The notes beneath the pieces are model-generated. The model had not been told where the DNA came from, ran no database searches, and was given only the letters and a program-made list of their open reading frames with translations. A stretch of DNA of 64,000 nucleotides from an uncultured Eubacteriales bacterium. GTDB lineage: Bacteria > Bacillota > Clostridia > UBA1381 > UMGS1253. Where the stretch lies: the NCBI GenBank assembly GCA_902492065.1, contig CABUKE010000003.1:1942-65941 (forward strand). The letters run 5' to 3'. Each line of letters begins with the position of its first letter. Positions within the stretch are counted from its first letter, which is position 1. Below, piece by piece: positions 5,130-23,683 of the stretch. The position numbers and the translations under genes were made by a program.

Positions 5130-5143
5130 ACTTTACCTCCATC

Positions 5144-6307: not shown

Positions 6308-6320
6308 CAGTAAGACCCCT

Positions 6321-6707: not shown

Positions 6708-6716
6708 GACGTTCCC

Positions 6717-6911: not shown

Positions 6912-6923
6912 ATCTTTTGCCCC

Positions 6924-7436: not shown

Positions 7437-8401
7437 ATCTTTTTATCCTCTCTGCCATACGTACACAATCTGTCATAGGTACACACTTCCTCCACCGTTC
7501 CGCTTCCGCTGCGCTTGCTAAGCGTAACAAATATGTCAAACAGCGCGCACAGCTCCTGCCCGCCGCTCCGGTACAGGGCGGCGGCGCTGTGGGCATGTAT
7601 GCTCGCGATGACGCATACGCCACACCGCAGAGCGGAACGAATCGCCTCGATATCCTTCCCGCTTCCAATTTCATCCGTGACTATGGCCTGCGGTGACATG
7701 CTCCGCACCGCCATCATCATGCCCGCCGCCTTTGGACAGGCGTCGAGCACATCGGTGCGCACGCCCACATCATAGCCGCATATGCCGCCCGCCATAGCGG
7801 CAAGCTCGCTGCGCTCGTCGATAATGACACTTTTATAACCGCGTGCGGAAATCTGGCGTACCAGGTCGCGCAGGAGAGTCGTTTTCCCACATCCCGGCGG
7901 CGACACGATTAATGTGCTATGGAGCTTACCGCCGTGCAGCACGCTATCTATGACCTTGTCCGACGCACCGTACACCTGCCGCGCAAAACGGTAATTCATT
8001 CCGGAAATTTCTTTTAGAGAGCGAATTTCACCATTTTCAAGCACTGCGCTCCCCACAACGCCAATCCGGTTCCCGCCATTTACGGTCACGTATCCGTGCC
8101 GGAGCTGTTCCTGGCAGGCGTAGACGCTCCCGCCGCAGGCCAGTATAAGTGAACGCTCGAGGTCGGCTTCCGTCACAACATAGCCCGCGCCCTCCTGCTG
8201 GCAAAGCCGTCCTCCGGGCGTGATAAACTGCTGCTGTATGCCAAAGTCGAGCAGCAGAGGCCGCCCCTTTCGCAGACGTACCTCTTCAAGTGCGGTAAGG
8301 TCAACATGGCGCAACAGTTCCTGGATGCGTTCACTCATACAAGATAAAAGCGGACTTGTGTTATGTAGCTGTGCCGATGCAGCAATGTACATCTCTATCA
8401 C
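7430..8401 (-). CDS. spoIIIAA: Stage III sporulation protein AA (secretion-type ATPase)
   Basis: 323 aa with Walker A SPPGCGKTTLLRD. First gene of the operon. Confidence 0.9.
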   Translation of the reverse strand: MIEMYIAASAQLHNTSPLLSCMSERIQELLRHVDLTALEEVRLRKGRPLLLDFGIQQQFITPGGRLCQQEGAGYVVTEADLERSLILACGGSVYACQEQLRHGYVTVNGGNRIGVVGSAVLENGEIRSLKEISGMNYRFARQVYGASDKVIDSVLHGGKLHSTLIVSPPGCGKTTLLRDLVRQISARGYKSVIIDERSELAAMAGGICGYDVGVRTDVLDACPKAAGMMMAVRSMSPQAIVTDEIGSGKDIEAIRSALRCGVCVIASIHAHSAAALYRSGGQELCALFDIFVTLSKRSGSGTVEEVCTYDRLCTYGREDKKIC

Positions 8402-8460
8402 CTTTTCTTTCCGGAAGGCACGCCATTCCTGCTTGCCTGTCCTTTTGCTTTTGTTACTTC

Positions 8461-8489
8461 ATTGTATGTTTGTCCATTTTACATTATGA
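8461..8489 (-). promoter_or_regulatory. Sigma-E-type (mother-cell) promoter of the spoIIIA operon
   Basis: Minus strand reads TCATAAT-14 nt-CATACAAT. This matches the B. subtilis sigma-E consensus as I recall it (kmATATT-14-CATACAnT) and sits about 60 nt upstream of spoIIIAA. Confidence 0.55.
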
Positions 8490-8510
8490 CTAAATTATGT
8501 AAATGAACAG

Positions 8511-8545
8511 AAAAAAGACGTTGCCCGTAAGCAACGTCTTTTTTC
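8511..8545 (-). terminator. Rho-independent terminator after the 8552..9052 gene (A-run/T-run flanked, so potentially bidirectional)
   Basis: Stem gacgttgc/gcaacgtc with a 6-nt loop, flanked by A6 and T6. Confidence 0.75.
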
Positions 8546-8551
8546 TGTTTT

Positions 8552-9052
8552 TTATTCTATTTTTTCAACAGGGACGGCAAGCCGCGCGCCAACAGCGGCC
8601 GCTGCACCAAAATTAAACACAGGCGCTCTGTCATACGCATACCGGTATCCATACCGTTGCGCATCATAACGCCGGAGAGCCGCAAAAGCGTCACTGATTG
8701 CCATGCCGAAGTCCTCTTCCCGCTCGAATGGCTCTGTTTGGAAATATAACATCATACAGGCGGGAAGCTGAACAGTTCGATATCCATCCGGGATTACCTC
8801 TGCACCGTTTAGGGGCAATTCAATTCCGGCGGCAATGCTAGACTCTCCTTCTTCCACAAGGCCAGGCGGAAGCGTAAGCAGCGCCGCAGTGTCCATTTTT
8901 GCCGGGAAGGCGTTCAACACTTTTTCCCATTCACAGCCCATTTCTTCACAAAACGAGAAGTAGTCCGATGCGTGATGTGAAAGCAAGTACACCAGCCGCC
9001 GTGCAGGACGCTGCAACGCCGTGACCGTGCATATTCTCAGGTTTTCCCGCAT
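8552..9052 (-). CDS. Hypothetical cytoplasmic protein, possibly a GyrI-like / AraC-effector-binding-type small-molecule-binding fold
   Basis: 166-aa ORF, 17 nt downstream of the large lyase-like gene. It has no signal peptide. The fold guess rests only on size and sequence style. Confidence 0.35.
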   Translation of the reverse strand: MRENLRICTVTALQRPARRLVYLLSHHASDYFSFCEEMGCEWEKVLNAFPAKMDTAALLTLPPGLVEEGESSIAAGIELPLNGAEVIPDGYRTVQLPACMMLYFQTEPFEREEDFGMAISDAFAALRRYDAQRYGYRYAYDRAPVFNFGAAAAVGARLAVPVEKIE

Positions 9053-9069
9053 AACACTCCCCTTTTCGT

Positions 9070-12000
9070 CTATTTCTTCTCTGTAAATACAATCTCATTG
9101 ACCGAGTTCCACATATTCACAGTGTTACCCGCACCCATATACTTAACGTAGCGCGCCTTCACGCCGCCGAGATCGAACGCCTCCAGCTCGTTTGTCGTAC
9201 CGCTTGACTTCTGCTTTTCAAGCACAGTCGTGTAATTCTCGCCGTCCTCCGACACGGCAATCGAGAATGTATACACGCGGGAGTCGCCGCTGTGGTATGC
9301 AATCTGCACCTGGTCAAGTGTTTTCACATCGCCGAGGTCATAGACCGCCCAGGCCGCCGACTCCGTGCCTTCTGCGGCCCAGCGCGTTGTCATGTCGCAG
9401 TCAACCGAGTTTGTGATTACGCCGCCCTGACCGTCGTCCGCGCTCGCTTCCAAATCATAGACATTGAGCGCATTGGGAATATCGTGCTTGCACGGGTACA
9501 TCCAACGGCCCTGTTCATCCTTTTCCATCATGTCCGTTGTGCCCGGCGTAATGTAAACCGTACGCGCAAATTCGTCATAGCTTACCTGTGCGCCAAAGCT
9601 CTCGGAAATAAAGCGAATCGGTACAACAAAGCGATCTTGGTAAATCGTCGCCGGAACGTCAATCTCTACCGGTGAACCGTCGACATAGGTTGTCGTCTGG
9701 TTCTCTGTGATTTTTACCTCCCGTGTATTCAACGTCGCCGTGGCCGTTGCGCTTGCCTCGTCCCACTGAACTTCCGCGCCAAGCGCCTCAAAAATCGCAC
9801 GCATCGGAACAAGCGTCCGGTCATTTACAACCGTCGGCGCTGCATCGGAATACAGGAACTGCCGGTTCATGCGGATATATACACCTTCCAGCTCCGGCAT
9901 CGGCGAATTGATAAACTGTTTCTCCGCATTGGCGTCCTTGTAAGTCAGTGTGTAGCTGCCCGCCGGCGCAGTAAAGGAAAGGAGTTTGCCTTCTTCCGCT
10001 GCAATTACATCCTGTGTAAAGCCGTCGCCGCCGACTGTCCATGTGCCGGGCTTTACATCGGCAAGCGTATATTGCAGCTCGCCCTCGCCGCTGGTCGTAA
10101 GTGTAAAGCTGTCTGCAATTTCCGTCCCGCTCTTGGCAAATGTTACAACACGATCTGCAATTTTTACACCCGCAAGGACGTCTGTTTCAATCAATTCCGT
10201 ATCGAGATAATAGTCCTTATCGTTGTCGCTCACCTGCATAACATTGAGGAACAGGTCGGACTTTGCTTCCTGCTTCGGCGATACTTCAATGCGCCATGTT
10301 TCGCCCTCATCTGTCTCACTGTCGAGCTCATAGCCATAGTAGTTCGTACCGTCTACCATGTATTCACTGCCCTCGCCGCCAACCTTATCAATCGTAAGGT
10401 TATCCGCCGCCGGAAGAAGTGTGTCGACCGTCATCTTTCCGTTATATGCCTTGCCGGCGCCTTCATCGGCATACGTACGACGGAAAATCGTCTGGCTGCC
10501 GTTAATTTCCGGTTCCTCAAGGCCGTGGAGCAACCATTTCTTTTCAAACGAAGGATTCGACGAATCCACCTTGTCAAATACAATTAGCGCCGCCGGAACC
10601 TCGTCATTGAACAGGTTCAGGAACATGAACGACCGCTTGAAATCCTCAACCTTGTCGGTGTACGCATTCGTCAAATCGCCCTTCAGGTAGGTATAAGCCG
10701 GTGTCTGGGTATCCTCGCCGATTTCCTGCGCCTCTACCGTTGCCATATGGGAACCGTTCTCTTTCATCCACTCAAGCGTAGCCGGCTCAGAGCCGTTCAG
10801 AATCGTGCGCTGTCCGCCGTCGTTCGCCTTCACGCCAAACAGCGTCATCGTTTCGGTTTCGTTCGGGTCGTAAACTGTAATCGTATTATGCGCAATTGTA
10901 CGTTTATTGTATGCGGCGTCATGCGTCGTGCCATAGTCGGTATCTCCGTACTCGCCGCTTCCCCGTGTGCCTCCCTCATAAATACCAGAATCGCTGGCAA
11001 GAATCCCCTTATAATAGAGCTGGAAGTGTCCTGCGTCAAGGTGGTTATGGTTTGCAAAATACCATTCCCCAACCTTCATCTGCGCAACAACCGCCGGTGA
11101 TTCTGCGCCGTCCTCCCAGCCCGTACGCGCTACGCTCATCCCAATCGGGCTGCCGAAGTAACGGCTGAGCGGAAGCTCATAGATGGACCTCGCCGCCAAA
11201 TCTGGGTCATTGAGTACCAGGAACATAATCGGGGAGCTGTCATCATAGGTGTTTAGGAACGGATTTTCCCGGAAATATTCGTCCTTTAAATATGGGTCGC
11301 CCGCCATAGCAGAATCCATAAAGAACTGATGCGCGCCAATATTCCAGTAATTCCACATCGCCGCCGTATCGTTGAACGTATCGCCGTCGCGCAGGAGTTG
11401 GCCGTCTGGACGGCGCAGGTAAATGTGTCCATACAGCATTTGATACAAATTATCGTCGAGCGGCGCAGGCAGTCCCATTTGCGTGATAAAAATCTGCGCA
11501 TACGTGTCAAACCCATGCCGGTATGTACCGTACGAATCGCCCTGATGGTGATAGTGCGCCGTATTCTGGAAGTTACGTACTGGAACAAAATCCTGATAAT
11601 ACCGCCCTGCTACAACATCCCATACATCCGGACGCTCGTCGTAGATTGCAATTGCGAACCCAAGCAAATCGCGCTGGAGCTGCGCCTCACCGGCATGACT
11701 TGTAACGGCGTTCTGCTTCGTCGGCGGCCAGCCAATCTCCATCAAACCTGCCAGCTTTTCGCACTGGGTAATGATTTGCCGCTGCTTTGCCTTATCAAGC
11801 AGAGGATAGCACCAATCGTACACCTCCGATGCGACATAAATAACATAGCCACCGCCGCGCGTTGCATCGCCCGCAGTCGATACCGTCGAAAGATAGTTAA
11901 TCATTGCGTCAACGGCCATGTTTCCACTTGTTTCGTCACCCGTCAGCGCATAATTAAACGCATGTGCCTCAATGATGTTAAGCACACTCTTGTTGATGTT

Positions 12001-13302
12001 CCCCCCGCCATTCGGCGAAGCAGCAAGCATACCGTCCGTCGAGTCGGCCAGGAGCGCCTCATACCGCTCTTTTGCAGCCTGATTCTGCGGCTTATCCATA
12101 TTTTCCAGTATTTCTGGAATATCACTCTTCCGGAACAGCAAGCGCGGATGTTCTGCCGGCGGATTGACCGGCGGCTTCTCATATGGCCCGCTGATTGTCG
12201 TCATCGGCAAATCCTCGATTTTGTCCGGGATTTCCCCCATACCGGAGGGGGTAAACGTCTTATCCGTCACGATAAATTTGTCCACTTTCATGTCTGCTTC
12301 ACGAACAATCAGATCAATTGTATGCTCGCCCGCAGTAATCTGGCCCGATGTAAGCTGTACCCACTGCCAATCGGGCGAGTGTGCCGGCTGGAAATATGTA
12401 TAACTGCGGTCAAGCCCAGCAAACACAGAATCGTCGCCCTCGCCAACCGACATTAAGCGTGCCCATACCGTGTACATCCCCGCGGTATTCACTTTAAACG
12501 TATAAGATGCGTCCGCGTCAGAACCCTTCGCCGGGTCGGAAGCCGGCTTTTCACCGGAGGCTAAAATATACTTTCCACCGGAAGCGTCCTTTGCCTCAGA
12601 AACAATGTACTTTTCTCCTAATACACCGGCCTCTGCCTCGATACCAACACCGTTACCAGCTACCTCAAACACCTTGCCGGCGGGCTTTGTGCCCGATGTA
12701 GGCTTTGCGCTGGCGGTCGGCTGCGCACTTGCTGTCGGACGCGGTGTAGAGTCTGATACACCAGGAATCTCCGCCGGGAGCTTTGTCTTATCCGTCGTTA
12801 CAAACAGCGCGTCAAGCTGAGCACCGTTTTCTCGATGTGTCCACGAGAACGTATGCTTTCCCGCTTTTAGATCCTGTGTCACAACCTCTACCCAGTGGTA
12901 CTCCTCTAAACCACCCGGATGGATTGTCTGCCATGCTTCGTCGTCCCACTTAAAATGGAACGAATCACTGCCGGAGTCACCGCCCACGCCCGGAATATAC
13001 GCTCGTATAAAGACCGTATACGAACCATCGGATGGAATCTCAAACTCCCACCTAACATCCGGCTTAGACAGGGAAGCCGGGTCGTCAAGCCGCCCGCCCT
13101 TGCTGGCAACGATATACTTTCCGCCGCTTGCCGCGTTGTCTTTGAATGTTTCAATGTCATTGTTCAGCTCCCCATCTTCACACTCGACAAGCGTATCTAC
13201 GCCGAATGTCGCTGCAAACGCAGGAATGCCGACGCCAGACAGCATCGTAACCAGCATTGCAACCGTCAGCAGCATACTAACAAGTTTTTTGCCTTTCCTC
13301 AT
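9070..13302 (-). CDS. Secreted multidomain heparinase II/III-like (DUF4962-type) polysaccharide lyase candidate
   Basis: 1410 aa. Order of parts: signal peptide MRKGKKLVSMLLTVAMLVTMLSGVGIPAFA; two CBM6/35-like modules (ECEDGELNN...ASGGKYIV; IEAEAGVLGEKYIV..ASGGKYIL) joined by a PT-rich linker; EHPRLLFRKSDIPEILENM (DUF4962-like N-terminus of the toroid); HNHLDAGHFQLYYKG (heparinase II/III motif region); a copper-amine-oxidase-N-like 'stalk' domain (NDRTLVPMRAIFEALGAEV); and a C-terminal F5/8 type C (discoidin) domain (TTRWAAEG...). RBS is GGGAGGA. Confidence 0.8.
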   Translation of the reverse strand: MRKGKKLVSMLLTVAMLVTMLSGVGIPAFAATFGVDTLVECEDGELNNDIETFKDNAASGGKYIVASKGGRLDDPASLSKPDVRWEFEIPSDGSYTVFIRAYIPGVGGDSGSDSFHFKWDDEAWQTIHPGGLEEYHWVEVVTQDLKAGKHTFSWTHRENGAQLDALFVTTDKTKLPAEIPGVSDSTPRPTASAQPTASAKPTSGTKPAGKVFEVAGNGVGIEAEAGVLGEKYIVSEAKDASGGKYILASGEKPASDPAKGSDADASYTFKVNTAGMYTVWARLMSVGEGDDSVFAGLDRSYTYFQPAHSPDWQWVQLTSGQITAGEHTIDLIVREADMKVDKFIVTDKTFTPSGMGEIPDKIEDLPMTTISGPYEKPPVNPPAEHPRLLFRKSDIPEILENMDKPQNQAAKERYEALLADSTDGMLAASPNGGGNINKSVLNIIEAHAFNYALTGDETSGNMAVDAMINYLSTVSTAGDATRGGGYVIYVASEVYDWCYPLLDKAKQRQIITQCEKLAGLMEIGWPPTKQNAVTSHAGEAQLQRDLLGFAIAIYDERPDVWDVVAGRYYQDFVPVRNFQNTAHYHHQGDSYGTYRHGFDTYAQIFITQMGLPAPLDDNLYQMLYGHIYLRRPDGQLLRDGDTFNDTAAMWNYWNIGAHQFFMDSAMAGDPYLKDEYFRENPFLNTYDDSSPIMFLVLNDPDLAARSIYELPLSRYFGSPIGMSVARTGWEDGAESPAVVAQMKVGEWYFANHNHLDAGHFQLYYKGILASDSGIYEGGTRGSGEYGDTDYGTTHDAAYNKRTIAHNTITVYDPNETETMTLFGVKANDGGQRTILNGSEPATLEWMKENGSHMATVEAQEIGEDTQTPAYTYLKGDLTNAYTDKVEDFKRSFMFLNLFNDEVPAALIVFDKVDSSNPSFEKKWLLHGLEEPEINGSQTIFRRTYADEGAGKAYNGKMTVDTLLPAADNLTIDKVGGEGSEYMVDGTNYYGYELDSETDEGETWRIEVSPKQEAKSDLFLNVMQVSDNDKDYYLDTELIETDVLAGVKIADRVVTFAKSGTEIADSFTLTTSGEGELQYTLADVKPGTWTVGGDGFTQDVIAAEEGKLLSFTAPAGSYTLTYKDANAEKQFINSPMPELEGVYIRMNRQFLYSDAAPTVVNDRTLVPMRAIFEALGAEVQWDEASATATATLNTREVKITENQTTTYVDGSPVEIDVPATIYQDRFVVPIRFISESFGAQVSYDEFARTVYITPGTTDMMEKDEQGRWMYPCKHDIPNALNVYDLEASADDGQGGVITNSVDCDMTTRWAAEGTESAAWAVYDLGDVKTLDQVQIAYHSGDSRVYTFSIAVSEDGENYTTVLEKQKSSGTTNELEAFDLGGVKARYVKYMGAGNTVNMWNSVNEIVFTEKK

Positions 13303-13328
13303 ACCATATCCTCCCTTAAAAAATTAAT

Positions 13329-13344
13329 ATGCATATAATTATGC
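13329..13344. promoter_or_regulatory. 6-4-6 inverted repeat in the AT-rich region upstream of the lyase gene (candidate operator)
   Basis: tgcata-taat-tatgca, seen directly about 30-40 nt upstream of the start codon at 13302. No binding protein can be assigned. Confidence 0.3.
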
Positions 13345-13447
13345 ACAATACCCTATTTATATTTTAGCCTATTTTTGTTGTTTTGTATAGGTGGTTTTTA
13401 TCATTTTATGTGTAAAAAAAATATCTATAAATAGATATATAGAAGCT

Positions 13448-14287
13448 TTATTTATCTCCCCGCTTTTTAAGCGCACCCGGCAGGGTGGAAAAATTCTTTT
13501 TATATTCCCGCAAAAAGCTGGACAACGACCCAAACCCGCTCGCATAGCATGCCTCCGTAACTGAAAGCATCCCCGTTTCCAAAAGCTTGCGCGCATAATT
13601 TGCACGCAGCGAATTTAAATAGCTTTTAAAGGTTTGTCCAACACTTTGATGGAACACCGTACAAAAATATTTTTCACTCAGGCCAGTAATAGCCGCCACC
13701 TCCGCAAGCGACAAATCGTCGCGAAAATGGCTATGGATATACAGAATTGCCCGCCGGACCGGCTCTTTATCCGGCTCTGAAAAAGGTGCATACGCAAACG
13801 CGAACCGCCGTGCTATTGTAATAAAAATGCATTCCAATATATCCTTCATAAAAATTTCTTTATACTTACGTTCCGCTTCAAACTCCTCCACCAAACGGGC
13901 AAATAGCGGATACACGCTATCAAATTCATCCGCCCGCAGTGTAAACATAATATCGTTTTTATAACTGAGCAACGCGTCAAGCAGTTGTGTCCGGATCAGG
14001 CTTTCGTCCAGCATGATATTAATCAGCTCAAGCTCCTCTATAACATGGATTCCATGGTAATCGGAAGGGTTTAAAACAAAAATATCCCCCCTGCCAAGCG
14101 GATATTCTCTGCCGTTTAAAAGGTGTGTTGCCTTTCCGGAAAGCACGAGTTCAATCTCAAAAAAATCGTGCCAGTGCAGCTTGAAATCCTTTGAAATTTT
14201 CTTTCTCGAAACGCTCATCAAAAACCCCTGCGGGATTTCATCTTCTGCACTGAACCGAAGAATATCCACCGTCTTTTTTCTGCTCAA
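13448..14287 (-). CDS. AraC family transcriptional regulator (cupin sensor + HTH)
   Basis: 279 aa. N-terminal cupin-like region (HWHDFFEIELVLSG) and C-terminal AraC double HTH (LSLAEVAAITGLSEKYFCTVF...). Transcribed divergently from the ROK operon. Confidence 0.88.
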   Translation of the reverse strand: MSRKKTVDILRFSAEDEIPQGFLMSVSRKKISKDFKLHWHDFFEIELVLSGKATHLLNGREYPLGRGDIFVLNPSDYHGIHVIEELELINIMLDESLIRTQLLDALLSYKNDIMFTLRADEFDSVYPLFARLVEEFEAERKYKEIFMKDILECIFITIARRFAFAYAPFSEPDKEPVRRAILYIHSHFRDDLSLAEVAAITGLSEKYFCTVFHQSVGQTFKSYLNSLRANYARKLLETGMLSVTEACYASGFGSLSSFLREYKKNFSTLPGALKKRGDK

Positions 14288-14447
14288 TACACATCCCTCC
14301 CTCTACCATTATAACGTAAAAATTTATATATACAACCCGATATCGTACTTTTTGCAATATTTTTGTGAGTTTTTAGAGAGTATCTCCTCTATTGTTTTGC
14401 TATAATAAAAAACAACATGTTAAAAAACTGGATAAAGGAGTGGTACG

Positions 14448-15416
14448 ATGCTGGTTGGAATTGATATCGGCGGCACCAAGTGTGGCGTTTGCTGTGGAGA
14501 GGTGTCTGGCAATTCGGCGATGATTCATAAAAAGCTGCAATTTCCAACGCCGCAGGACGGCAATCCTTACGCTGTATTGGACTTGTTTTGTGAAAAAATA
14601 AAACAACTCATGCCGGAAAAGGACATTGACGCAATCGGCATTAGCTGCGGCGGGCCGCTCGACAGCAGCAGCGGGATGATTCTGTCGCCGCCAAATCTGC
14701 CGGGCTGGGATAACGTGGACATTGTAACGTTTTTTCAGGAGCAATACGGCGTACCCGTCTATCTGCAAAACGATGCAAATGCCTGTGCAATGGCAGAATG
14801 GAAGTTAGGCGCCGGGCAGGGGCTGTCCAGTCTTATCTTTCTCACCTGCGGCACAGGTATGGGCGCGGGATTAATTCTGGATGGGCGGCTCTATCACGGC
14901 GCGTCTGACCTGGCCGGGGAAGTCGGCCACATCCGCCTGGATCGTTTTGGACCGTCCGGATTCGGAAAATCAGGGTCGTTCGAGGGCTTTTGCAGCGGGG
15001 GCGGCATTGCGCAGCTCGCGCGGGCCAAAGCGTTAGAACAGCTCCAGCTTGGTAAACAGACAGCATACTGCAAAAGCTATGCCGAGTTAGACGGGATTAC
15101 GGCAAAATCCGTCGCAGACTGCGCCTATGCAGGCGATGCACTTGCACGCGAAGTATACGAAATCAGTGCGGAAAAGTTGGGCATGGCTCTGTCACTGCTT
15201 GTTGACCTCTTAAACCCACAAGCCATCATTATCGGCAGTATTTTTACCCGCAGCCGTGATCTGCTTTGGGATGGTGCGCGGCACGTTATGGAGCGCGAAT
15301 GTATTCCCGTTTCCTATGGCGCATGTGAAGTAAAAAGTGCCCAGCTTGACGACGACATTGGCAACTATGCCGCGCTGATTACCGCAACAGGGCTTGGACA
15401 AATAAAAGAGCCATAA
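14448..15416 (+). CDS. ROK family sugar kinase (atypical, lacks the Cys-rich zinc motif)
   Basis: N-terminal MLVGIDIGGTKCG ATP-binding motif and ROK core LQNDANACAMAEW...GEVGHIRL. The position of the usual CxCGxxGC motif reads FGPSGFGKSGSFEGF. Confidence 0.8.
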   Translation: MLVGIDIGGTKCGVCCGEVSGNSAMIHKKLQFPTPQDGNPYAVLDLFCEKIKQLMPEKDIDAIGISCGGPLDSSSGMILSPPNLPGWDNVDIVTFFQEQYGVPVYLQNDANACAMAEWKLGAGQGLSSLIFLTCGTGMGAGLILDGRLYHGASDLAGEVGHIRLDRFGPSGFGKSGSFEGFCSGGGIAQLARAKALEQLQLGKQTAYCKSYAELDGITAKSVADCAYAGDALAREVYEISAEKLGMALSLLVDLLNPQAIIIGSIFTRSRDLLWDGARHVMERECIPVSYGACEVKSAQLDDDIGNYAALITATGLGQIKEP

Positions 15417-15438
15417 CACGAGAAAAGGAGGAGAAGTA

Positions 15439-16065
15439 ATGGAAGAATTATTTGCGCGGTATCCCGCACTGCACGTATGCAAAAACGAAATCGAGCAGGC
15501 TCTGCAAACCATGGAACAGACATACCGCTGCGGCGGAAAAGTTTTGCTGTGCGGCAACGGCGGAAGCCACGCAGACTGTGACCACATTGTAGGCGAATTG
15601 ATGAAAAGTTTTATCCTGCCGCGCAGGACGCCGCAAAAAGACGTTGAAAAATTGGAACAGCTTTATGGAAGTAAGGCCGCCCAGCAGTTTGCTTCCTGTC
15701 TTCAGCGCGCTGTCCCGGCGATTTCCCTGCCGTCGCAGGGGGCGGTACTTTCTGCTTATGGCAACGACGTTTCGCCCCAAATGGCGTACGCACAGCTCGT
15801 ATATGGCTACGGCCGCCCGGGCGACCTGCTGCTCTGCCTTTCGACCTCCGGCAATTCAGAAAACATTGTAAATGCAGCAAGGATAGCAAAAGCCTTCGGC
15901 CTCTCCGCACTCGCATTTACGGGGCAAAACGCCTGCGCGCTCGACTCGATTTGCGATGTTGTCATAAAAGCGCCGGCAGAAGAAACCTATCGGGTACAGG
16001 AGTATCACCTGCCAATCTACCATTATTTATGTATGGAGTTGGAAAAACGGCTGTTTTCAGACTAA
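15439..16065 (+). CDS. SIS-domain phosphoheptose isomerase-like protein (GmhA family)
   Basis: Collinear with E. coli GmhA as I remember it: GGKVLLCGNGGSHADCDH, YGND, LLCLSTSGNSENIV, and RVQEYHL near the C-terminus. Confidence 0.75.
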   Translation: MEELFARYPALHVCKNEIEQALQTMEQTYRCGGKVLLCGNGGSHADCDHIVGELMKSFILPRRTPQKDVEKLEQLYGSKAAQQFASCLQRAVPAISLPSQGAVLSAYGNDVSPQMAYAQLVYGYGRPGDLLLCLSTSGNSENIVNAARIAKAFGLSALAFTGQNACALDSICDVVIKAPAEETYRVQEYHLPIYHYLCMELEKRLFSD

Positions 16066-16110
16066 AGAATATAATATAAAATTATTATTCATCTCAGAAA
16101 GGTGGTAAAA

Positions 16111-18396
16111 ATGGAACGCACAATATCTTTAAACGGAGAATGGAAGTTATATTTCTACGAAGAAAGCAAAGCGGACATCCGTACGTCTGAACAGCTTGTA
16201 GTTAGCGGCATTGCGCCAATTCCTGCCTTTGTGCCGGGCAATGTGGAGCTTGACCTGTCGCGCGCCGGCATCTTGCCGGGGGATCTGTATAAAGGAATGA
16301 ATATTGTAAAGGCAGAGAAATTCGAGTCCTATTCGTGGTGGTATGAAACCGCCTTCCCTACGCCCGAATATGATGCCGATGCGTCAGTGGAACTGCGCTT
16401 TGCAGGCACCGACTGCATAGCGGAATACTTTTTAAACGGTAAGCTGCTCGGACGCTCGGACAACGCCATGATTCCCGTTGTTTTTGATGTGACAGAACAG
16501 TTGAAGCCCGCCGGAAACAACAGCTTATTTGTACATATTTTTTCCCCGATAAACGCGGCGTACAACGTGGAATATGAAATGTATTCCCTGCAAAATTCGT
16601 GGCATGCAAACTATGAAACACTCGGCCTGCGCAAGCCGGCGCACAGCTTCGGCTGGGACATTATGCCGCGTGCTGTGAGCGCGGGGCTTTACAAAGGGGT
16701 TAGCCTCACTGTTACGTCCTGCTGCCGTTTTATACAGCTTGCCTACCATGTTGTAAGATTGGAAGAGAACGCGGCAGTCCTGCGATTTTCCTACGAACTC
16801 GGCGTACGGCCCGAAATGGTTGCACAAGGTCTACAGCTTGTCATAGAAGGCTGCTGTGGCGAATCACATTTCCGGCAAAGCGCGCCCGTCCGCTTTAAGG
16901 CGGGATATGTGGAATTTTCTATAGAAAACCCAATGCTTTGGTGGCCGTACGGCTATGGAGAGGCGAATCTGTACGCCACAACCGTCACAATTCGGCAGTG
17001 CGAAAAAGTCTTAGCACAGCGGACACTTAACGTAGGTATCCGCACTGTAGCGCTCTTGCGTTCCGACAGCCTGACTGATGAAAATGCACAGTTTCAATTT
17101 CAAGTAAATGGCGTGGATATCTTTTGCCGCGGGTCGAACTGGGTACCGCTCGACGCCTACCATAGCCGCGACGCCGCGCGCTATGAACAGGCATTCGCAT
17201 TGGTTAAAGACATCGGTTGTAATATTCTGCGCTGCTGGGGCGGCAACGTGTACGAGCAGGAGCAGTTTTACGATTTCTGCGACAAAAACGGCGTTATGGT
17301 CTGGCAGGATTTCTCTATGGCCTGTTACGTTTATCCAATTACAGACAAATTCTGCAAACGTCTTGAAGCGGAAGCAACCTACATTGTCAAATCACTCCGT
17401 ACGCATCCGTCTATTCTTCTCTGGTCGGGCGACAATGAGTGCGACGAAACGCTGTACCTGCACGGAATTGACCCGGCAAAAAACAAGCTGACCCGCCAAG
17501 TCCTGCCCAACGTGGTTCTGCGCCACGACCCGACGCGGCCATATCTTGCAAGTTCGCCCTACATATGCACCAAAATTTTTGAAGCAGCAGACCGTGGCAG
17601 TCTGCCGGAGGAGCATCTCTGGGGGCCGCGCGACTACTATAAAAGCAGCTTCTACGCAAACAGCAGGGCAAAGTTCGTCAGTGAAACGGGGTATCACGGC
17701 TGTCCGGGCAGGAAATCAATTGAGAAATTTATCGACAGTGATTTTATCTGGCCATATGAAAACAATCCACAATGGAACCTGCACTCGTCCGATCAACAGA
17801 ACCGCGACGACCGCGTAATGCTGATGGCGAACCAAATCCGCCAGCTTTTCGGCTCTGTGCCGGATAATCTTGATGATTTTGCGCTCGCGTCGCAAATTTC
17901 ACAGGCGGAAGCAAAAAAGTTTTTCATCGAGCGTATACGCATACAAAAGCCCTATACGAGCGGCATCATCTGGTGGAACCTGCTCGACGGCTGGCCGCAG
18001 ATGTCTGATGCGGTGGTCGATTATTATTTTGAAAAAAAATTGGCGTATCATTATATCAAACGCAGTCATGCCCCATTTTGTATTATGTTAGGCGAACTCG
18101 TAAACTGGGGGCATGACATTGTAGCGGTAAATGACACTCTGCAAAAAAAGGCCGGCAACTATGTCATTTCCGACATAGAAACGGGAGAACGGCTTGCAGA
18201 AGGAGCATTTTCCCTGCCGTCAAACGGGCACAAAACGCTCGGCAGACTGAACATGTTCTATTCTGCGCAGCGCATGCTCCTAATTTCTTGGGAAATAAAC
18301 GGGCAGAAGGCCTATAACCACTACCTATGCGGCATGCCTGCCTTTGACTTTGTACAATATCAAACATGGATGAAGCTGTTGTCACGATATGATTAA
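16111..18396 (+). CDS. Glycoside hydrolase family 2 (beta-mannosidase / exo-beta-glucosaminidase-like), cytoplasmic
   Basis: About 761 aa counted from the ATG at 16111 (RBS aaaggtgg 5 nt upstream; the ORF track begins at GTG 16102). Motifs seen: SLNGEWKLYFYE, an acid/base-type WSGDNECDE, and a nucleophile-type VSETGYHG. No signal peptide. Confidence 0.82.
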   Translation: MERTISLNGEWKLYFYEESKADIRTSEQLVVSGIAPIPAFVPGNVELDLSRAGILPGDLYKGMNIVKAEKFESYSWWYETAFPTPEYDADASVELRFAGTDCIAEYFLNGKLLGRSDNAMIPVVFDVTEQLKPAGNNSLFVHIFSPINAAYNVEYEMYSLQNSWHANYETLGLRKPAHSFGWDIMPRAVSAGLYKGVSLTVTSCCRFIQLAYHVVRLEENAAVLRFSYELGVRPEMVAQGLQLVIEGCCGESHFRQSAPVRFKAGYVEFSIENPMLWWPYGYGEANLYATTVTIRQCEKVLAQRTLNVGIRTVALLRSDSLTDENAQFQFQVNGVDIFCRGSNWVPLDAYHSRDAARYEQAFALVKDIGCNILRCWGGNVYEQEQFYDFCDKNGVMVWQDFSMACYVYPITDKFCKRLEAEATYIVKSLRTHPSILLWSGDNECDETLYLHGIDPAKNKLTRQVLPNVVLRHDPTRPYLASSPYICTKIFEAADRGSLPEEHLWGPRDYYKSSFYANSRAKFVSETGYHGCPGRKSIEKFIDSDFIWPYENNPQWNLHSSDQQNRDDRVMLMANQIRQLFGSVPDNLDDFALASQISQAEAKKFFIERIRIQKPYTSGIIWWNLLDGWPQMSDAVVDYYFEKKLAYHYIKRSHAPFCIMLGELVNWGHDIVAVNDTLQKKAGNYVISDIETGERLAEGAFSLPSNGHKTLGRLNMFYSAQRMLLISWEINGQKAYNHYLCGMPAFDFVQYQTWMKLLSRYD

Positions 18397-18405
18397 GTGC
18401 AGGAT

Positions 18406-18442
18406 ACAAAAACCCCCTTGCCGGTTCGGCAAGGGGGTTTTA
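18406..18442. terminator. Bidirectional Rho-independent terminator between the convergent GH2 and lyase genes
   Basis: Perfect 10-bp stem cccccttgcc/ggcaaggggg with loop ggttc, flanked by A5 and T4. Confidence 0.88.
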
Positions 18443-18470
18443 ATAATTAGGAGTATGAAACTATGTGTGC

Positions 18471-21400
18471 TTATTTAAACTCAACCTCAAGAATGGAATT
18501 CCATGCATTTGAGGTATTACCACTTCCGGAAATTCTTACTGCTTTAACCGTAGTCGGCTGCGGAAGCTTATACTCGGCAAGCGTATCTTCCTTGTTGGTC
18601 TGTGTACCATCAAACACAGTCTCAAAGTTTTCCCCATCTTCTGAAATTTCGAGCTTAAACATGGTGCTTCTTTCATTTGATTTCCAGAAAGCAATCCATA
18701 CAGAAGAAATCTCCCGCGGGTTTGCAAAGGTGTACTTAATCCACTGTTCGCCTTCTGCCGCCCAGCGTGTGCCGAGATCGCCGTCAAGCGTGTTTGCCGG
18801 CACATTGGCCGGTTCCGGAACGTCGCTGGCCTCAACCTCAATTTCCGCCATTGCACGCAGCGTAATATCATAGATATTGTACGTTTCCGGGTCATTGGGG
18901 TCATAAACCCTGACAGAAGCAATTCCCGGGAGTGCCGCCGCCTGTGTAATTTCTACTGTATAACCGTCCTCTGCTGTCGCATTCACAGTCGGAACAGCTG
19001 TCGTGCCGTAAGGCAGAACAACTTCATAGTTGGTAGCAAGCGGGCTGAAATTTCCCACCGTTTGTCCGTCAACCGTCAAATCAGTAAGACGCGGAATAAC
19101 GATTTCCCCGTCCGGAATCGTCCAGTCTGCGATGTCCGTATAGGTATATTTGTAATCCGGCTCCGTCTGCGTCCCTTCAAGCAGGCGGAACTCCACCGCC
19201 AGCTTGTAGTCCGTTACACCGGACATATGAATCGCAAGCTTCTTCCATGCGCTCCGGTCATACTCCGCTTCGTTCTTCTGCGGAGAGGTCGGCAACGGGT
19301 CAGCCGCCATTACTTCAAATTTTGCATCTGCCATATCGGACACAATGCCAACCCACATACGTTTGCCCGCTTTTTCAATAACAGCCGATTTGCCGTCCGG
19401 TGCAACGGTAATTTCGCCGTCCTGTACGTGTGCAAACCACCACACTTCCGACGCACTTGGCAGCGTCATTTCGTCCTGTACCACAACTGCCTTACGGTTG
19501 TCGGTAAAGAGTATGCCTCTCTGCGCCTCCTTTACCTTATTGCCATGCGCTGGCGCCATGTCAACGACAGCAATTGCGCCGCGCGGTTTGCTTTCATGGC
19601 GGGTAATCTTCGTTGTCGCAGAAACGACTTGGTCCTCCGACGTCCCCGGGTTTACCGTTATTGTATTGTGGCCTTCCGCACGGTTACGGTAGTACGTCCA
19701 GCGCGTACCGCCTGCGCCACCGCTGAAGTAGCTCGGCAGGTTATAATTTTCTGTGCCGATATCGCTGATAAAGCGTACACCGCCTGCATCAATCACAAAG
19801 TTACCACTGTCAAGGTTACCGTGGTTAACGCCATTGTAACCACCATGCAGCCCCGTGAATACTGTGCCGGAATCGTTCCAGTCGCCGCGCATTGTCACTG
19901 TTTCAACACCGGTCATATAGCGGTCAAGTGGAAGATGTACTTCTTTATTAATATTGTTCAGGTCATAGTGCAGGATATCATGGATGCCTGCCGCCTTTCT
20001 CCCGCTTGTAATATCCTGTAAGCGCATACCCGCAAGGTCCGGATTGCCAATTTTATTTGCAACCCAGAACAAATGAGACGTATCAACGGTTCCCTCGCCG
20101 CAGTCATTAAAGTTCCACATGCCGTTTGTGCCTTCAATATAGTTCGGGAAGTAGCATGTCGTATCAAGCCCCGGTGCATTAAACAGACCATAATCCGTCC
20201 CCATTGCAGAATCAAGACACTCAATCATATAGAACAGATTGTTCGTGCCGTATGCCCAATAGCCAGGCCCTTCCGGATAGCTTCCGTCCGGCGCGTAGCA
20301 GCGAATACCTTTTTCAATCGACTTGAGTACCTTCCCCATCAAATCTCCGGCGTCTTTTTCATATTCCGGCAAATCGCCAATTGCCGCACACGCAAGCGTC
20401 AAACCGCCGTTGCACACAGCGTTCCAGTTGTTGTCCGTGTTCGTCCAGCCGCTCCGGCCAAATGTTCCGTGCTTCGGCTCCATATCCTCCGTCGTACCGG
20501 CATACGCGCCGATTCCGGCCTGAATGCCATGCTCGAACAAGCCTTTTTCAATAACTTTGCGCTGCTCGTCGGTAAATCCGTCATACATCCAGTCGTATCC
20601 AATTGCAACGCCTTTCATAATGCCCGCTGCATCGAGGAAGTGGCCCGGGTGCCAGTTATCAAAGCCACAAAGAACCTCGATGTGGTCATATGCTGCGTCA
20701 ACATATTTCTGGTCACCGGTCATCTGATAAGCCAAGCCCCATTGCAACATATAGCTTTCCGTATTTGTCCCCTTGAGCCGGCCACCCTCATCGACACTGT
20801 AGACCGGCGGTTGTGCGCTCGCCGCCGTGTTTTCCGCATTTTTTAACTGCTTATCAATCCACTCTTTCATCAGCGGGTCCGTATCATACAAAGACTTAAT
20901 CCGTGCAAAATCGTCCGCATTGGCCAGAATTCTTGGATGCTGCGGTGCGTTTGCCTTTAAGTCGGAGATAATCTTTTCCCCGCCCGGCCGTTCATACGTG
21001 AACTCCGCCATAACATTCAGCATCAGCGCCAAATCTGTATCCCGGTTAAAAATATTTTCTGTATCAGAAATAACAATCAGCCCCATATCGTCCCAGAATA
21101 CCTGCTTGCCAAGTGCTTCCGCAATTGCGCGCAATGGTACAAACGTCCGGTCATCCCCTGTCACAATTGCCGCAGTGTCAATCTGGATTTCCTGCCCGTT
21201 TTTATAAATCTTATCTGAACCGATGGTAAGCTCAATTGTATCATTGCCGAGCTTTACCGTAACTTTTTCCGTCGCACCGCCGTCATACGATACCTCAGCG
21301 CCGAACGCCTCTGAGATAAACCGCATTGGAACGAGCGTACGGTCATTGCTTGTGAACGGAACCACGTTTGCATTGTTTTCGTCAATTGGCAGTTTTTCCT

Positions 21401-22703
21401 TTTTCACCAGTGCAGATGGGCAGTCAAGCTTTAGGCAGACTGCGTTCTCCACCCGTGAAAAGTCGGATGGGTTTGCCGTCGGAACCGGTGTTGCTTCTAC
21501 ATTGGAGCCGTCGAGATAAATGGTATCCAAATAGAGTACCGTCGACGTGTCGTTCTCCATGCCCCAGCCCGTGGAGAAAAGCTTGAGCGAGTCGATCTGA
21601 TGCCAGCCAATCGGCGTACGTGTCTTGCCGAGTGAAGCGAATGTCCCCTTCACTTCTGTCCACGCCTGCGGTGCAAGCGTCAGCGACCTGCCGTAATAGT
21701 CGTCGCCATCCGTTGTCGCAGCATTCTGGCTATCGAAGCGCATATAAAGCTTCTGCTCTTTATCAGAGCTGTTATATATGTTGAAGCTATATTCCGTGTA
21801 GCAGCGCAAATCACCCGAAATACTGTTGAATATAAGATTTGGCTTATCCGCAAACTTCCACTCTGCGCTGTATTTTGCAGACTTTACATTTTTGCTGTCT
21901 GCCGTCAGTCCCATTGCCTTAATCGCGTCTTTATCGTCGCAGTCAAACACGGCCGTTTTTCCCTTCATTGTTACATTGCTGTCCGGTGTTGAGGACGGTG
22001 CTGCAGAAGGCGTAAACGTATTAGTCGGTTCCTGTACATCCTTGCCCGTTATATCCTTCGGCTCCGTCGCTTCATAAATCTTCAAATTGTCCACGAGCAG
22101 GTCAGCCCCGTTTCCACTTTTTGCAATATATAAACGCAGCAAGGTCAGCCCCGTCGCCGCTCCCGACACCGGAACGCCTTTTTCAACCTGCTTTCCGTCT
22201 ACATAACTGTCATATGTAAAAGTTTCCAGATTAAGTACGGCTGCAACATTCAACCACTTGCCCTTTTTTAGTGTACCAAGTTCCTTCTCGCTCCCAGCCG
22301 AGATTATCTTGCCATTACTAATTTTAAACAAGCGACCATCTGTTCTTGATGAATCTTTAAACTGAAGATCTCCGCTGATGCCCGCCTTTGTCGAGGAAAG
22401 ATCCATCTCTACAACGATGTACTTCGTCGGGTTCGGCATCGAAACCTCTATGTAACAATCCTCAGTGACAGCATCCGCCATCTGAATCTTAACATACTGG
22501 TTGTCGCCTTCTTTTTCCAGCGCGATGGAATTCGACTTTGGCATAACGATAAGCCCATCCTCCAGCGCCTTGCCCTCCTCATCATAGGTGCGGTTGTAAA
22601 AGATTGCCTCTCCTACATCATCCGCCGCAAAGGATAGCGTCGGAAAACACGTCACGACAAGCGCCATAACAAGCGCCCATATTATTGCTTTACTTCGCAT
22701 CAT
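18471..22703 (-). CDS. Secreted multidomain heparinase II/III-like polysaccharide lyase candidate (second subfamily)
   Basis: 1410 aa. Order of parts: signal peptide MMRSKAIIWALVMALVVTCFPTLSFA; LamG-like domain (about aa 27-215); a second beta-sandwich (about 250-400); two copper-amine-oxidase-N-like repeats (NDRTLVPMRFISEAFGAEV; DDRTFVPLRAIAEALGKQV); QHPRILANADDFARIKSLY followed by NWHPGHFLDAAG and VNHGNLDSGNF (alginate-lyase/heparinase III-like core); a cadherin-like beta-sandwich (LTDLTVDGQTVGNFSPLATNYEVVL); and a C-terminal F5/8 type C domain (GTRWAAEGEQW...). Confidence 0.8.
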   Translation of the reverse strand: MMRSKAIIWALVMALVVTCFPTLSFAADDVGEAIFYNRTYDEEGKALEDGLIVMPKSNSIALEKEGDNQYVKIQMADAVTEDCYIEVSMPNPTKYIVVEMDLSSTKAGISGDLQFKDSSRTDGRLFKISNGKIISAGSEKELGTLKKGKWLNVAAVLNLETFTYDSYVDGKQVEKGVPVSGAATGLTLLRLYIAKSGNGADLLVDNLKIYEATEPKDITGKDVQEPTNTFTPSAAPSSTPDSNVTMKGKTAVFDCDDKDAIKAMGLTADSKNVKSAKYSAEWKFADKPNLIFNSISGDLRCYTEYSFNIYNSSDKEQKLYMRFDSQNAATTDGDDYYGRSLTLAPQAWTEVKGTFASLGKTRTPIGWHQIDSLKLFSTGWGMENDTSTVLYLDTIYLDGSNVEATPVPTANPSDFSRVENAVCLKLDCPSALVKKEKLPIDENNANVVPFTSNDRTLVPMRFISEAFGAEVSYDGGATEKVTVKLGNDTIELTIGSDKIYKNGQEIQIDTAAIVTGDDRTFVPLRAIAEALGKQVFWDDMGLIVISDTENIFNRDTDLALMLNVMAEFTYERPGGEKIISDLKANAPQHPRILANADDFARIKSLYDTDPLMKEWIDKQLKNAENTAASAQPPVYSVDEGGRLKGTNTESYMLQWGLAYQMTGDQKYVDAAYDHIEVLCGFDNWHPGHFLDAAGIMKGVAIGYDWMYDGFTDEQRKVIEKGLFEHGIQAGIGAYAGTTEDMEPKHGTFGRSGWTNTDNNWNAVCNGGLTLACAAIGDLPEYEKDAGDLMGKVLKSIEKGIRCYAPDGSYPEGPGYWAYGTNNLFYMIECLDSAMGTDYGLFNAPGLDTTCYFPNYIEGTNGMWNFNDCGEGTVDTSHLFWVANKIGNPDLAGMRLQDITSGRKAAGIHDILHYDLNNINKEVHLPLDRYMTGVETVTMRGDWNDSGTVFTGLHGGYNGVNHGNLDSGNFVIDAGGVRFISDIGTENYNLPSYFSGGAGGTRWTYYRNRAEGHNTITVNPGTSEDQVVSATTKITRHESKPRGAIAVVDMAPAHGNKVKEAQRGILFTDNRKAVVVQDEMTLPSASEVWWFAHVQDGEITVAPDGKSAVIEKAGKRMWVGIVSDMADAKFEVMAADPLPTSPQKNEAEYDRSAWKKLAIHMSGVTDYKLAVEFRLLEGTQTEPDYKYTYTDIADWTIPDGEIVIPRLTDLTVDGQTVGNFSPLATNYEVVLPYGTTAVPTVNATAEDGYTVEITQAAALPGIASVRVYDPNDPETYNIYDITLRAMAEIEVEASDVPEPANVPANTLDGDLGTRWAAEGEQWIKYTFANPREISSVWIAFWKSNERSTMFKLEISEDGENFETVFDGTQTNKEDTLAEYKLPQPTTVKAVRISGSGNTSNAWNSILEVEFK

Positions 22704-22735
22704 TGGGTACCCCCTCCATTCTTTTTTATATAAAT

Positions 22736-22764
22736 ATTATAACGCCGCAATATCAACTTTGCAA
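22736..22764 (-). promoter_or_regulatory. Sigma-A promoter for the 18471..22703 lyase gene
   Basis: Minus strand reads TTGCAA-17 nt-TATAAT, about 30 nt upstream of the RBS GGAGGGGG. Confidence 0.65.
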
Positions 22765-22824
22765 CATAATTTACAAAAAATATATTAATTTTATCTAAAT
22801 TATATTTTTAATTTTCGAAAACCT

Positions 22825-22854
22825 TTGTTGTTTTTTTCTTGTTCCTGTTATAAT
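22825..22854 (+). promoter_or_regulatory. Upstream candidate promoter (P2) of the ECF S-component operon
   Basis: TTGTTG-18 nt-TATAAT with a TGt extended -10. Confidence 0.4.
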
Positions 22855-22900
22855 AGTTCTTTCCGTACCTTTTTATGCCAATTCTCCTTAGCTTGGATGC

Positions 22901-22928
22901 TTGCTTTTTTTCATATTTATGGTATAAT
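22901..22928 (+). promoter_or_regulatory. Sigma-A promoter (P1) of the ECF S-component operon
   Basis: TTGCTT-16 nt-TATAAT with a TGg extended -10. Confidence 0.6.
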
Positions 22929-22983
22929 AATTTCTAAGATTTTCGGGATGGTTTTATTTTAGGAAATCGGGCAATCCATAGGA

Positions 22984-23016
22984 GCAAGCCGAGTATGGCT
23001 TGCCTTTCTATTTTTC
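22984..23016 (+). terminator. Leader (attenuator) terminator upstream of the ECF S-component gene
   Basis: Hairpin gcaagcc-gagtat-ggcttgc followed by ctttctattttt. It lies about 50 nt downstream of the predicted P1 start and about 65 nt before the start codon. Confidence 0.6.
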
Positions 23017-23081
23017 AGTATACACTTTTATATGGGCAAGAGAGTTAACAAACGAGTTGTATAAAAAAGGGGATGAATTGT

Positions 23082-23675: not shown

Positions 23676-23683
23676 TTCCTTTT

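Follow-up and report, generated by a model that had tools for sequence, protein, structure and literature searches.

The carbohydrate-degradation locus described here lies at positions 8552..22703 of a 64,000-nt stretch of DNA (the window, hereafter), which belongs to contig CABUKE010000003.1 of an uncultured Eubacteriales bacterium (GenBank assembly GCA_902492065.1). Two genes for large secreted proteins of the polysaccharide lyase (PL) type, one of family PL21 and one PL35-like, bracket the gene of an AraC-family regulator and a divergent operon encoding a ROK-family sugar kinase, a GmhA-like SIS isomerase and a family 2 glycoside hydrolase (GH2), and a small open reading frame (ORF) follows the PL21 gene. 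All seven ORFs of the locus map where an earlier note, made from the bare sequence, had placed them, and the AraC regulator, the ROK kinase, the GmhA-like SIS protein, the GH2 and the two lyase-type proteins are identified by Pfam and NCBIfam. Two statements of that note are thereby borne out: the presence of two 1410-aa (amino acid) secreted proteins with different cores (also from PDB matches and Sec signal peptides), and the bracketing of the AraC gene and of the divergent ROK-GmhA-like-GH2 operon by the lyase genes. The features of the locus are the following:

8505..8550, both strands: strong bidirectional hairpin terminator with a 20-bp stem, predicted to end the PL21/small-ORF transcript before spoIIIAA.
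8552..9052, minus strand: 166-aa cytoplasmic protein, predicted to be a stand-alone GyrI-like domain of the Rob/BmrR/SbmC type (AlphaFold 2 model and Foldseek).
9070..13302, minus strand: secreted 1410-aa PL21 (heparinase II family) lyase (Pfam, NCBIfam, PDB match, signal peptide).
9946..12162, minus strand: PL21 catalytic core, aa 381-1119 of that protein (2FUQ alignment, NCBIfam HepB).
13448..14287, minus strand: AraC-family regulator of 279 aa with a cupin AraC_binding and an HTH_18 domain, divergent from the ROK operon (Pfam, NCBIfam).
14448..15416, plus strand: cytoplasmic ROK-family sugar kinase, 322 aa (Pfam, NCBIfam).
15439..16065, plus strand: GmhA-like SIS isomerase, 208 aa (Pfam, NCBIfam, alignment to 2XBL).
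16111..18396, plus strand: cytoplasmic GH2, 761 aa (PDB match to 9NFE).
18408..18441, both strands: bidirectional intrinsic terminator (AAAAACCCCCTTGCCGGTTCGGCAAGGGGGTTTT) between the convergent GH2 and PL35-like genes, read from the sequence.
18471..22703, minus strand: secreted 1410-aa PL35-like lyase (Pfam, PDB matches, signal peptide).
19296..20948, minus strand: PL35-like catalytic core, aa 586-1136 of that protein (alignment to PL35 structures).

The PL21 protein starts with a typical Sec signal peptide, followed by two beta-sandwich modules resembling GH115_C and Golvesin_C (aa 31-380), the PL21 core, a Cu_amine_oxidN1 domain and a CBM32-type F5/8C domain; its Pfam matches are Hepar_II_III_C, HepII_C, Cu_amine_oxidN1 and F5/8C. 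In a PDB sequence search, heparinase II (HepII, 2FUQ) aligns end to end with aa 381-1117 (E=3e-145), and the NCBIfam equivalog model HepB gives 614.7 bits for a cut-off of 600. The equivalents of HepII His202, Glu205, Tyr257 and His406 are conserved in the alignment to 2FUQ, Glu205 being the neutraliser, and so are all three positions (3/3) of the Zn ligands, reported by Shaya et al. as His408, Asp425 and His451. Active-site roles in HepII have been described for His202, Tyr257 and His406 (PMC10656541). By these alignments, the protein is a complete heparinase II homologue of family PL21, with beta-eliminative cleavage of heparin or heparan sulfate (HS) as a candidate activity. It shares with HepB of Pedobacter heparinus (2FUQ/3E80) the three-domain core, the catalytic set, the Zn site and HepII_C, and differs from it in three respects: its core is one part of a Gram-positive secreted protein of 1410 aa that also has Cu_amine_oxidN1, CBM32 and a pair of beta-sandwich modules at the N-terminus, the window gene has no sulfatase or GH88 nearby, and its activity is a predicted one. 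The protein with the HPRLLF and HLDAGHFQLYYKG motifs, previously described as DUF4962-like, is thus the PL21 enzyme, and the Pfam DUF4962 match sits instead on the PL35-like protein. Likewise, the two modules formerly compared with CBM6/35 match GH115_C (29 bits) and Golvesin_C and no CBM6/35 model; no PDB sequence relatives were found for either.

The PL35-like protein also has a typical Sec signal peptide at its N-terminus, and continues with two unassigned beta-rich regions, Cu_amine_oxidN1, the core, a weak cadherin-like module and a CBM32-type F5/8C domain (Pfam: Cu_amine_oxidN1, Hepar_II_III_C, a weak DUF4962 and F5/8C). Its assignment to PL35 is made by similarity to PDB chains: the best matches of the core are GAGase II (8KHV), GAGase VII (8KHW) and a chondroitinase (9O3Q), with E values of 1e-62 to 1e-57 (like that of 2FUQ for the PL21 protein, well outside what chance would give), while no other heparinase or alginate lyase chain does better than 1e-11. 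The protein has its toroid plus beta-sandwich core in common with the PL35 glycosaminoglycan (GAG) lyases GAGase II and VII and with the chondroitinase 9O3Q of Bacteroides caccae. The characterised GAGases solved to date are chains of about 600 aa, and the window protein differs from them by being multi-modular. At the positions of Tyr246, His401 and Asn191/Asn192, the core keeps the catalytic Tyr and His and the Asn-Asn neutraliser (motifs EGPGYWAYG, NHGNLD and DNNWN). Of the four Mn ligands, Asp405, Asp421 and His457 are kept and His403 is replaced by Asn (residue numbering, catalytic and Mn-ligand roles from PMC12088678). The H403A mutation inactivated GAGase II (PMC12088678). Of 120 homologues, 68 have H at this position, 44 have N and 6 have D, and the change to Asn is probably a tolerated natural ligand variant rather than a sign of decay.

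The Asn-Asn neutraliser is that of the GAG-specific GAGases II and VII, whereas in most of the nearest homologues the pair is His-Asn, that of the alginate-active GAGase III. The core scores much higher (390-430 bits) against a large uncharacterised subgroup, mostly with the His-Asn neutraliser and found in Verrucomicrobiota, Planctomycetota and Paenibacillus among others, than against these three PL35 enzymes. The genomic context of the nearest relatives (P0243/P0241) is uninformative, one of them lying in a housekeeping context and the other being a truncated copy beside a phage integrase. With 67% core identity, the closest non-orthologous relative (L173/L174, 418..3763) breaks off at 817 aa, has an ORF of 250 aa behind it and lies near a phage integrase; it is possibly a disrupted copy in a mobile context. 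As for the binding modules, the LamG-like one that had been listed before is detected in homologues only; the cadherin-like one is present as a match that stays below threshold (19.6 bits). The two lyases had also been said to carry different sets of modules; their decorations are not wholly different, because Cu_amine_oxidN1 and CBM32-type F5/8C occur in both. Taken together, the alignments show two signal-peptide-bearing, multi-modular predicted lyases with intact catalytic residues, one of family PL21 and one of the PL35-like, broad-spectrum GAG lyase type.

Which glycan might such enzymes degrade? To our knowledge, every characterised PL21 or PL35 enzyme is a GAG lyase, acting on heparin/HS for PL21 and on hyaluronan, chondroitin sulfate or HS for PL35; as the catalytic residues are intact, a GAG-like glycan containing glucuronic acid (GlcA) or iduronic acid is the default reading. 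GAGase III also cuts alginate (PMC12088678). No transporter, GH88/GH105 or sulfatase domain is detected by Pfam or NCBIfam in 8552..22703, no dedicated ABC, SusCD or PTS importer occurs in the locus, and tblastn with a Paenibacillus GH88 gives no match anywhere in the window, so that the lack of an importer and of GH88/GH105 reported before is confirmed. The transport genes seen in the window are those of an ECF S-component and of ABC-2 exporters, which adjoin the locus, and that of a carrier of the AEC family at 53231..54163. The earlier note considered the lack of a transporter unusual, and this does not hold: PL21 paralogues in related gut Clostridia (contigs L171 and L172) sit singly among housekeeping genes, and the missing local transporter thus reflects the dispersed gene organisation of the group. 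Its caution that the substrate is not deducible from the sequence is well founded. Its other suggestion, that the glycan may not be a classical GAG, is partly upheld, as the locus lacks the sulfatases, GH88 and transporter seen in Paenibacillus loci and a non-classical substrate is therefore still conceivable; a GAG-like glycan is nonetheless the default.

The proteins encoded between the two lyases are of a different kind, no signal peptide being found on the GH2, ROK or SIS proteins. The ROK protein is clearly a member of its family (Pfam ROK, 171.7 bits for a cut-off of 22.9), and falls below the cut-off of every specific NCBIfam kinase model (e.g., 170.9 bits versus 260.35 for glucokinase TIGR00744). 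The SIS protein similarly scores 118-122 bits with the gmhA equivalog models, below their cut-offs of 209-276. It keeps the His, Glu, Gln and His residues that make up the metal and catalytic set of GmhA (alignment to 2XBL, roles as in the Burkholderia pseudomallei enzyme), and carries an insertion of about 28 aa. The SIS fold and this residue set are shared with the sedoheptulose-7-phosphate isomerase GmhA (2XBL), while the setting is not that of heptose biosynthesis: the window gene belongs to a cassette of catabolic appearance, which also encodes a glycosidase and a kinase. The GH2 keeps the motifs WSGDNE and FVSETGYHG, which in this family hold the acid/base and the nucleophile, respectively. 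Its closest PDB relative is CapGH2b (9NFE, E=3e-176), a GH2_13 intracellular beta-mannosidase of 'Ca. Capybacter oxireducens' that is inactive on polymers and has a redox-switch cysteine pair, C427/C517 (PMC12770490). Both enzymes lack a signal peptide and share the catalytic motifs and Cys427. The Cys517 position is Phe in the window protein, which makes a redox regulation of the CapGH2b type doubtful here; another Cys lies four residues upstream (YICTK). The partners differ as well, CapGH2b belonging to a Bacteroidota mannan polysaccharide utilization locus with GH173 and GH5_57, and the window enzyme being accompanied by the ROK and GmhA-like proteins. The start of the GH2 gene is most likely the ATG at 16111, behind a AAAGGTGG ribosome-binding site, and not the GTG at 16102: nine metagenome contigs on record encode the 761-aa product, and no exact match on record was found for the GTG-started one. 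GmhA converts a ketose phosphate into a manno-configured aldose phosphate, and the simplest reading of the trio is therefore the release of a manno-configured sugar, its phosphorylation and its isomerisation to a ketose phosphate.

The two terminators are predicted to divide the locus into separate transcription units. The locus itself lies on the chromosome, between the spoIIIA operon on one side and an ECF S-component/S58 peptidase pair on the other, with a GC content no different from that of its flanks; it is a mosaic carbohydrate-degradation cluster, whose host is an uncultured spore-forming gut Clostridia bacterium near 'Ca. Aphodoplasma'. The closest genomes are metagenome-assembled genomes (MAGs), one from chicken caecum ('Ca. 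Aphodoplasma excrementigallinarum', 92% identity over the PL21 core) and the other 'uncultured Clostridiales bacterium UMGS1253' (86%). A Paenibacillus origin, to which GC content and the Cu_amine_oxidN1 domains could have pointed, is rejected, since gut Clostridia MAGs gave the best matches in the genome scan. Sporulation genes surround the locus, with spoIIIAA-AH and an Asp23-family gene upstream (window 892..8401) and spoVAD downstream (36066..37106).

Within the clade of the window, identical GH2 proteins are found with the same neighbours in several metagenomes. Two further, more divergent lineages (L085 and L086) carry the order spoIIIA - PL21 (1410 aa) - ROK - SIS - GH2 - PL35-like (1414 aa) - ECF-S - S58, with 81% identity to the window for PL21, 78% for ROK, 76-77% for SIS, 72-73% for GH2 and 79% for the PL35-like protein. 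The PL21-ROK-SIS-GH2-PL35 arrangement is therefore not specific to the strain, contrary to a possibility raised beforehand. The insertion point between spoIIIAA and the ECF-S gene is also the same in both. Neither has the AraC gene or the small ORF, so that the description of the locus as AraC-linked does not extend to its orthologues. Does this synteny reflect a single pathway? Outside the clade of the window, the parts are found mostly apart. None of 78 PL21 genome loci has a GH2 or SIS gene within 10 kb, and the few ROK matches near them are only 27% identical; conversely, 0/80 GH2 metagenome loci show a PL21 or PL35 core at a distance of up to 10 kb. In 12/80 of these loci, a ROK gene with about 50% identity is located less than 200 bp from GH2 (within 1.5 kb in 14/80), and six of them have a SIS gene at about 1.1 kb from GH2. 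The ROK-SIS-GH2 trio is widespread without lyases, and its combination with heparinase-like genes, which the earlier note had pointed out, may be a matter of neighbouring genes and not of a single pathway. The GH2-ROK-SIS set recurs independently of lyases in gut and environmental metagenomes (L089, L105, L115, L122, L133, L144 and L162), with a clean stand-alone example at 10001..13806 of L089.

AraC homologues (32-40% identical) lie divergently next to GH2 in L087, L088, L096 and L128 (36-40% in L087 and L088), and the regulator therefore belongs with the GH2 cassette. In L088, a 1435-aa PL35-like protein of the same architecture (33% core identity) is encoded beside the AraC-GH2 pair, whose GH2 is 54% identical to that of the window, and its gene is part of an operon that also encodes an EamA transporter and a GH63-like enzyme. 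In L097, GH2-ROK has a GH88-like gene and a GH95 gene beside it. The PL35-like gene of L088 and the GH88-like gene of L097 hint at a real coupling between lyases and cassette. A systematic co-location of the two was considered and rejected, as it appears in the window clade, and partly in L088, and not in the 78 PL21 or the 80 GH2 loci.

The reading that we favour, with a probability of about 0.55, is that of a mosaic locus, in which the lyases act on a GAG-like glycan, the cassette for a manno-configured sugar is separate and portable, and a link between the two, which is plausible, would be specific to the clade of the window. The two lyases would work extracellularly, cutting by beta-elimination a uronic-acid-containing GAG-like glycan, for which heparosan-like or HS-like chains, or other GlcA-hexosamine polymers from the host, the diet or bacterial capsules, are candidates, and the oligosaccharides would enter through a transporter encoded elsewhere. 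The genes in between would form a separately transcribed, portable cytoplasmic cassette (a beta-mannosidase-like GH2, a ROK kinase and a GmhA-like aldose-ketose isomerase), which may free a manno-configured sugar from a small imported glycoside, phosphorylate it and isomerise it to a ketose phosphate for central metabolism. In the window species, this cassette would be under the control of the AraC regulator that travels with GH2 in other bacteria, and the small downstream ORF would encode an accessory GyrI-like ligand-binding protein.

Several points weigh against this reading. The substrate is read from family membership only, and the sequences are distant: the PL21 core has 41-47% identity to the other PL21 homologues recovered (41% to that of Pedobacter lithocola), and the PL35-like core has only 30% identity to a characterised enzyme (GAGase II). 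No GH88/GH105, sulfatase or 2-keto-3-deoxygluconate-pathway genes were found in the examined parts of the window, which leaves the downstream fate of unsaturated uronates unexplained. A shared k-mer search for a common AraC operator in the three promoter regions gave only AT-rich 8-9-mers, which are unconvincing. The presence of GH78, GH36 and GH95 beside the cassette elsewhere makes its sugar specificity uncertain. Finally, the synteny in three lineages could result from common descent rather than function, and could equally mean that the cassette is truly integrated with the lyases.

This last possibility leads to the first alternative, somewhat improbable in our opinion, namely one integrated pathway for a non-GAG acidic heteroglycan with 4-linked uronic acid and a beta-linked manno-configured sugar, such as the capsule or exopolysaccharide of a bacterium or a gum of plants or algae: lyases would act outside the cell, the products would be imported, GH2 would remove the beta-mannosyl residue, and the ROK and SIS proteins would feed glycolysis. 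The five-gene arrangement kept in three lineages, the independent co-location of PL35-like and AraC-GH2 genes in L088 (GH2 54%, core 33% identical), the GH88-like gene beside GH2-ROK in L097 and the lack of sulfatases in the locus are all consistent with this pathway, as are the GH78, GH95 and GH36 neighbours of the cassette elsewhere, which suggest complex heteroglycans (for example, the cassette of L115 has a LacI regulator, a GH78 rhamnosidase and two GH36 genes alongside). Yet the surveys of the 80 GH2 and 78 PL21 loci speak against it, and so do the separate transcription units, divided by strong terminators, the orthologous loci devoid of the AraC gene, and the absence of a GH88/GH105 that would expose beta-mannose beneath an unsaturated uronate; moreover, we know of no PL21 or PL35 enzyme that acts on such a non-GAG glycan.

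A second alternative, which we judge unlikely, is that the locus represents the extracellular arm of a classical heparin/HS system directed at host GAGs, as in Paenibacillus or Bacteroides, with GH88, sulfatases and an ABC importer elsewhere in the genome and ROK-SIS-GH2 as a mere neighbour. The PL21 protein lies above the HepB equivalog cut-off, the PL35-like protein has the Asn-Asn neutraliser of GAGases II and VII and not the His-Asn of GAGase III, the habitat is the gut, and a PL21 relative in L175 is followed by an ABC importer. In addition, six Paenibacillus genomes have PL21 next to a PL35-like gene (about 36% identical), in loci that also hold GH88, two SGSH-type sulfatases, several solute-binding proteins and more heparinase-like genes, and which are classical sulfated-GAG (heparin-type) loci. 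Adjacent PL21 and PL35-like genes in a Bacillota genome are thus common to the window and, for instance, Paenibacillus sp. RC67 (L068), whereas the window locus has a GH2-ROK-SIS cassette instead of GH88, sulfatases and solute-binding proteins. The third PL21 homologue of the window also fits a classical system: it is a bare core of 759 aa without signal peptide (50917..53196, minus strand), 28 kb from the locus, presumably cytoplasmic, with a 2FUQ match at E=1e-126, the catalytic His, Tyr and His kept, and 540 bits with NCBIfam HepB, below the cut-off of 600. This protein, which the earlier note had not related to the locus, could provide an intracellular oligosaccharide-lyase step without counterpart there.

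On the other hand, the HepB score of the secreted PL21 protein barely clears the cut-off, with 41-47% identity to the other homologues recovered, and neither sulfatases nor GH88 were found in those parts of the window that were examined or less than 10 kb from any PL21 paralogue of gut Clostridia MAGs. These paralogues are also more numerous than one substrate seems to need, with up to seven per MAG: among the 80 loci listed, seven belong to 'Ca. Aphodoplasma excrementigallinarum', six to Oscillospiraceae SIG450, six to a Hadza-gut MAG and four to UMGS1253. The expansion comprises L007, L014, L015, L022, L024, L042 and L050 (one MAG), and further L031, L033, L035, L039, L071 plus one duplicate-contig locus, as well as L029, L030, L038, L047 and L059.

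It is quite unlikely that the GH2-ROK-GmhA-like cassette is an undescribed catabolic route for a manno-configured sugar, recruited by the Aphodoplasma-like clade beside its PL21 and PL35 lyases for a non-GAG glycan containing uronic acid. Such a route might run from a beta-mannoside to mannose-6-phosphate and then, by a SIS-type enzyme that bypasses the cupin phosphomannose isomerase, to fructose-6-phosphate; in another version it might salvage heptose, from a beta-D-glycero-D-manno-heptoside to heptose-7-phosphate and sedoheptulose-7-phosphate. If true, both lyase families would extend beyond GAGs. Lastly, the idea that the two large proteins have no catalytic function and serve as surface adhesins or binding proteins with a lyase-like fold, to which their many binding-type modules (CBM32, Cu_amine_oxidN1 and beta-sandwich repeats) could point, is very improbable and is rejected, all catalytic residues being conserved in both cores (a loss of them had been named earlier as pointing to adhesins), with 3/3 Zn ligands in PL21, 3/4 Mn ligands in PL35 and a substituted metal ligand that is a frequent natural variant in the family.

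Returning to the mosaic reading, its components are new members of known families (PL21, PL35-like, GH2_13-like, ROK, GmhA-like SIS, AraC and GyrI-like), and the locus is a fairly ordinary carbohydrate-degradation cluster with nothing categorically new biologically. Bacteroidota and a few soil bacteria are the main sources of the GAG-type lyases characterised so far, and large multi-modular secreted PL21 and PL35-like enzymes in an uncultured gut Clostridia lineage point to under-studied Bacillota as degraders of acidic glycans in the guts of animals and humans. An action on host HS or hyaluronan would make these enzymes relevant to mucosal glycan turnover, and any other substrate would broaden the range known for PL21 and PL35. 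The GH2-ROK-GmhA-like cassette occurs commonly in metagenomes and could be characterised biochemically at little cost; nothing relevant on a ROK/GmhA-like/beta-mannosidase pathway, or on PL21 in Firmicutes, was found in the literature searched.

The small ORF lies 17 bp behind the stop codon of the PL21 gene. It is absent from L085 and L086 and does not belong to the core of the system. Its 166-aa product has no Pfam (including GyrI-like), NCBIfam or PDB sequence match. Many of its 186 homologues form the C-terminal half of proteins of about 300 aa with an N-terminal AraC-type HTH_18 domain. An AlphaFold 2 model built on 30 sequences (predicted local distance difference test, pLDDT, 96.5) has BrlR, EcmrR-C, SAV2435, SbmC/GyrI and Rob as top Foldseek matches (probability 1.0, template modelling score about 0.55-0.6), and the protein is, according to this model, a putative GyrI-like small-molecule-binding domain protein, as the earlier wording "possibly ligand-binding" had anticipated. 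The predicted fold is that of the effector domains of Rob, BmrR, BrlR and SbmC, and the fusion of homologues to an AraC-type HTH recalls Rob, whereas the window protein stands alone. The protein (window 8555..9052) and its homologues P0362-P0378 define a GyrI-like domain family undetected by current Pfam.

No RNA element, riboswitches included, matches Rfam at E<=0.1 in 8000..24000. Farther along the window, the third PL21 gene is adjoined by the carrier at 53231..54163 (minus strand, AEC/Mem_trans family) and by genes for PHP-domain and FAD-dependent proteins (the site includes 49309..50904, minus strand), and has a local GC content of 0.57-0.58, versus about 0.50 elsewhere. A second AraC-family regulator (41127..42017) adjoins a 534-aa protein with an ADP-ribosylglycohydrolase domain (39490..41094; both within 39490..42017, minus strand), and a Na/Pi cotransporter-PhoU fusion comes next at 42057..43847.

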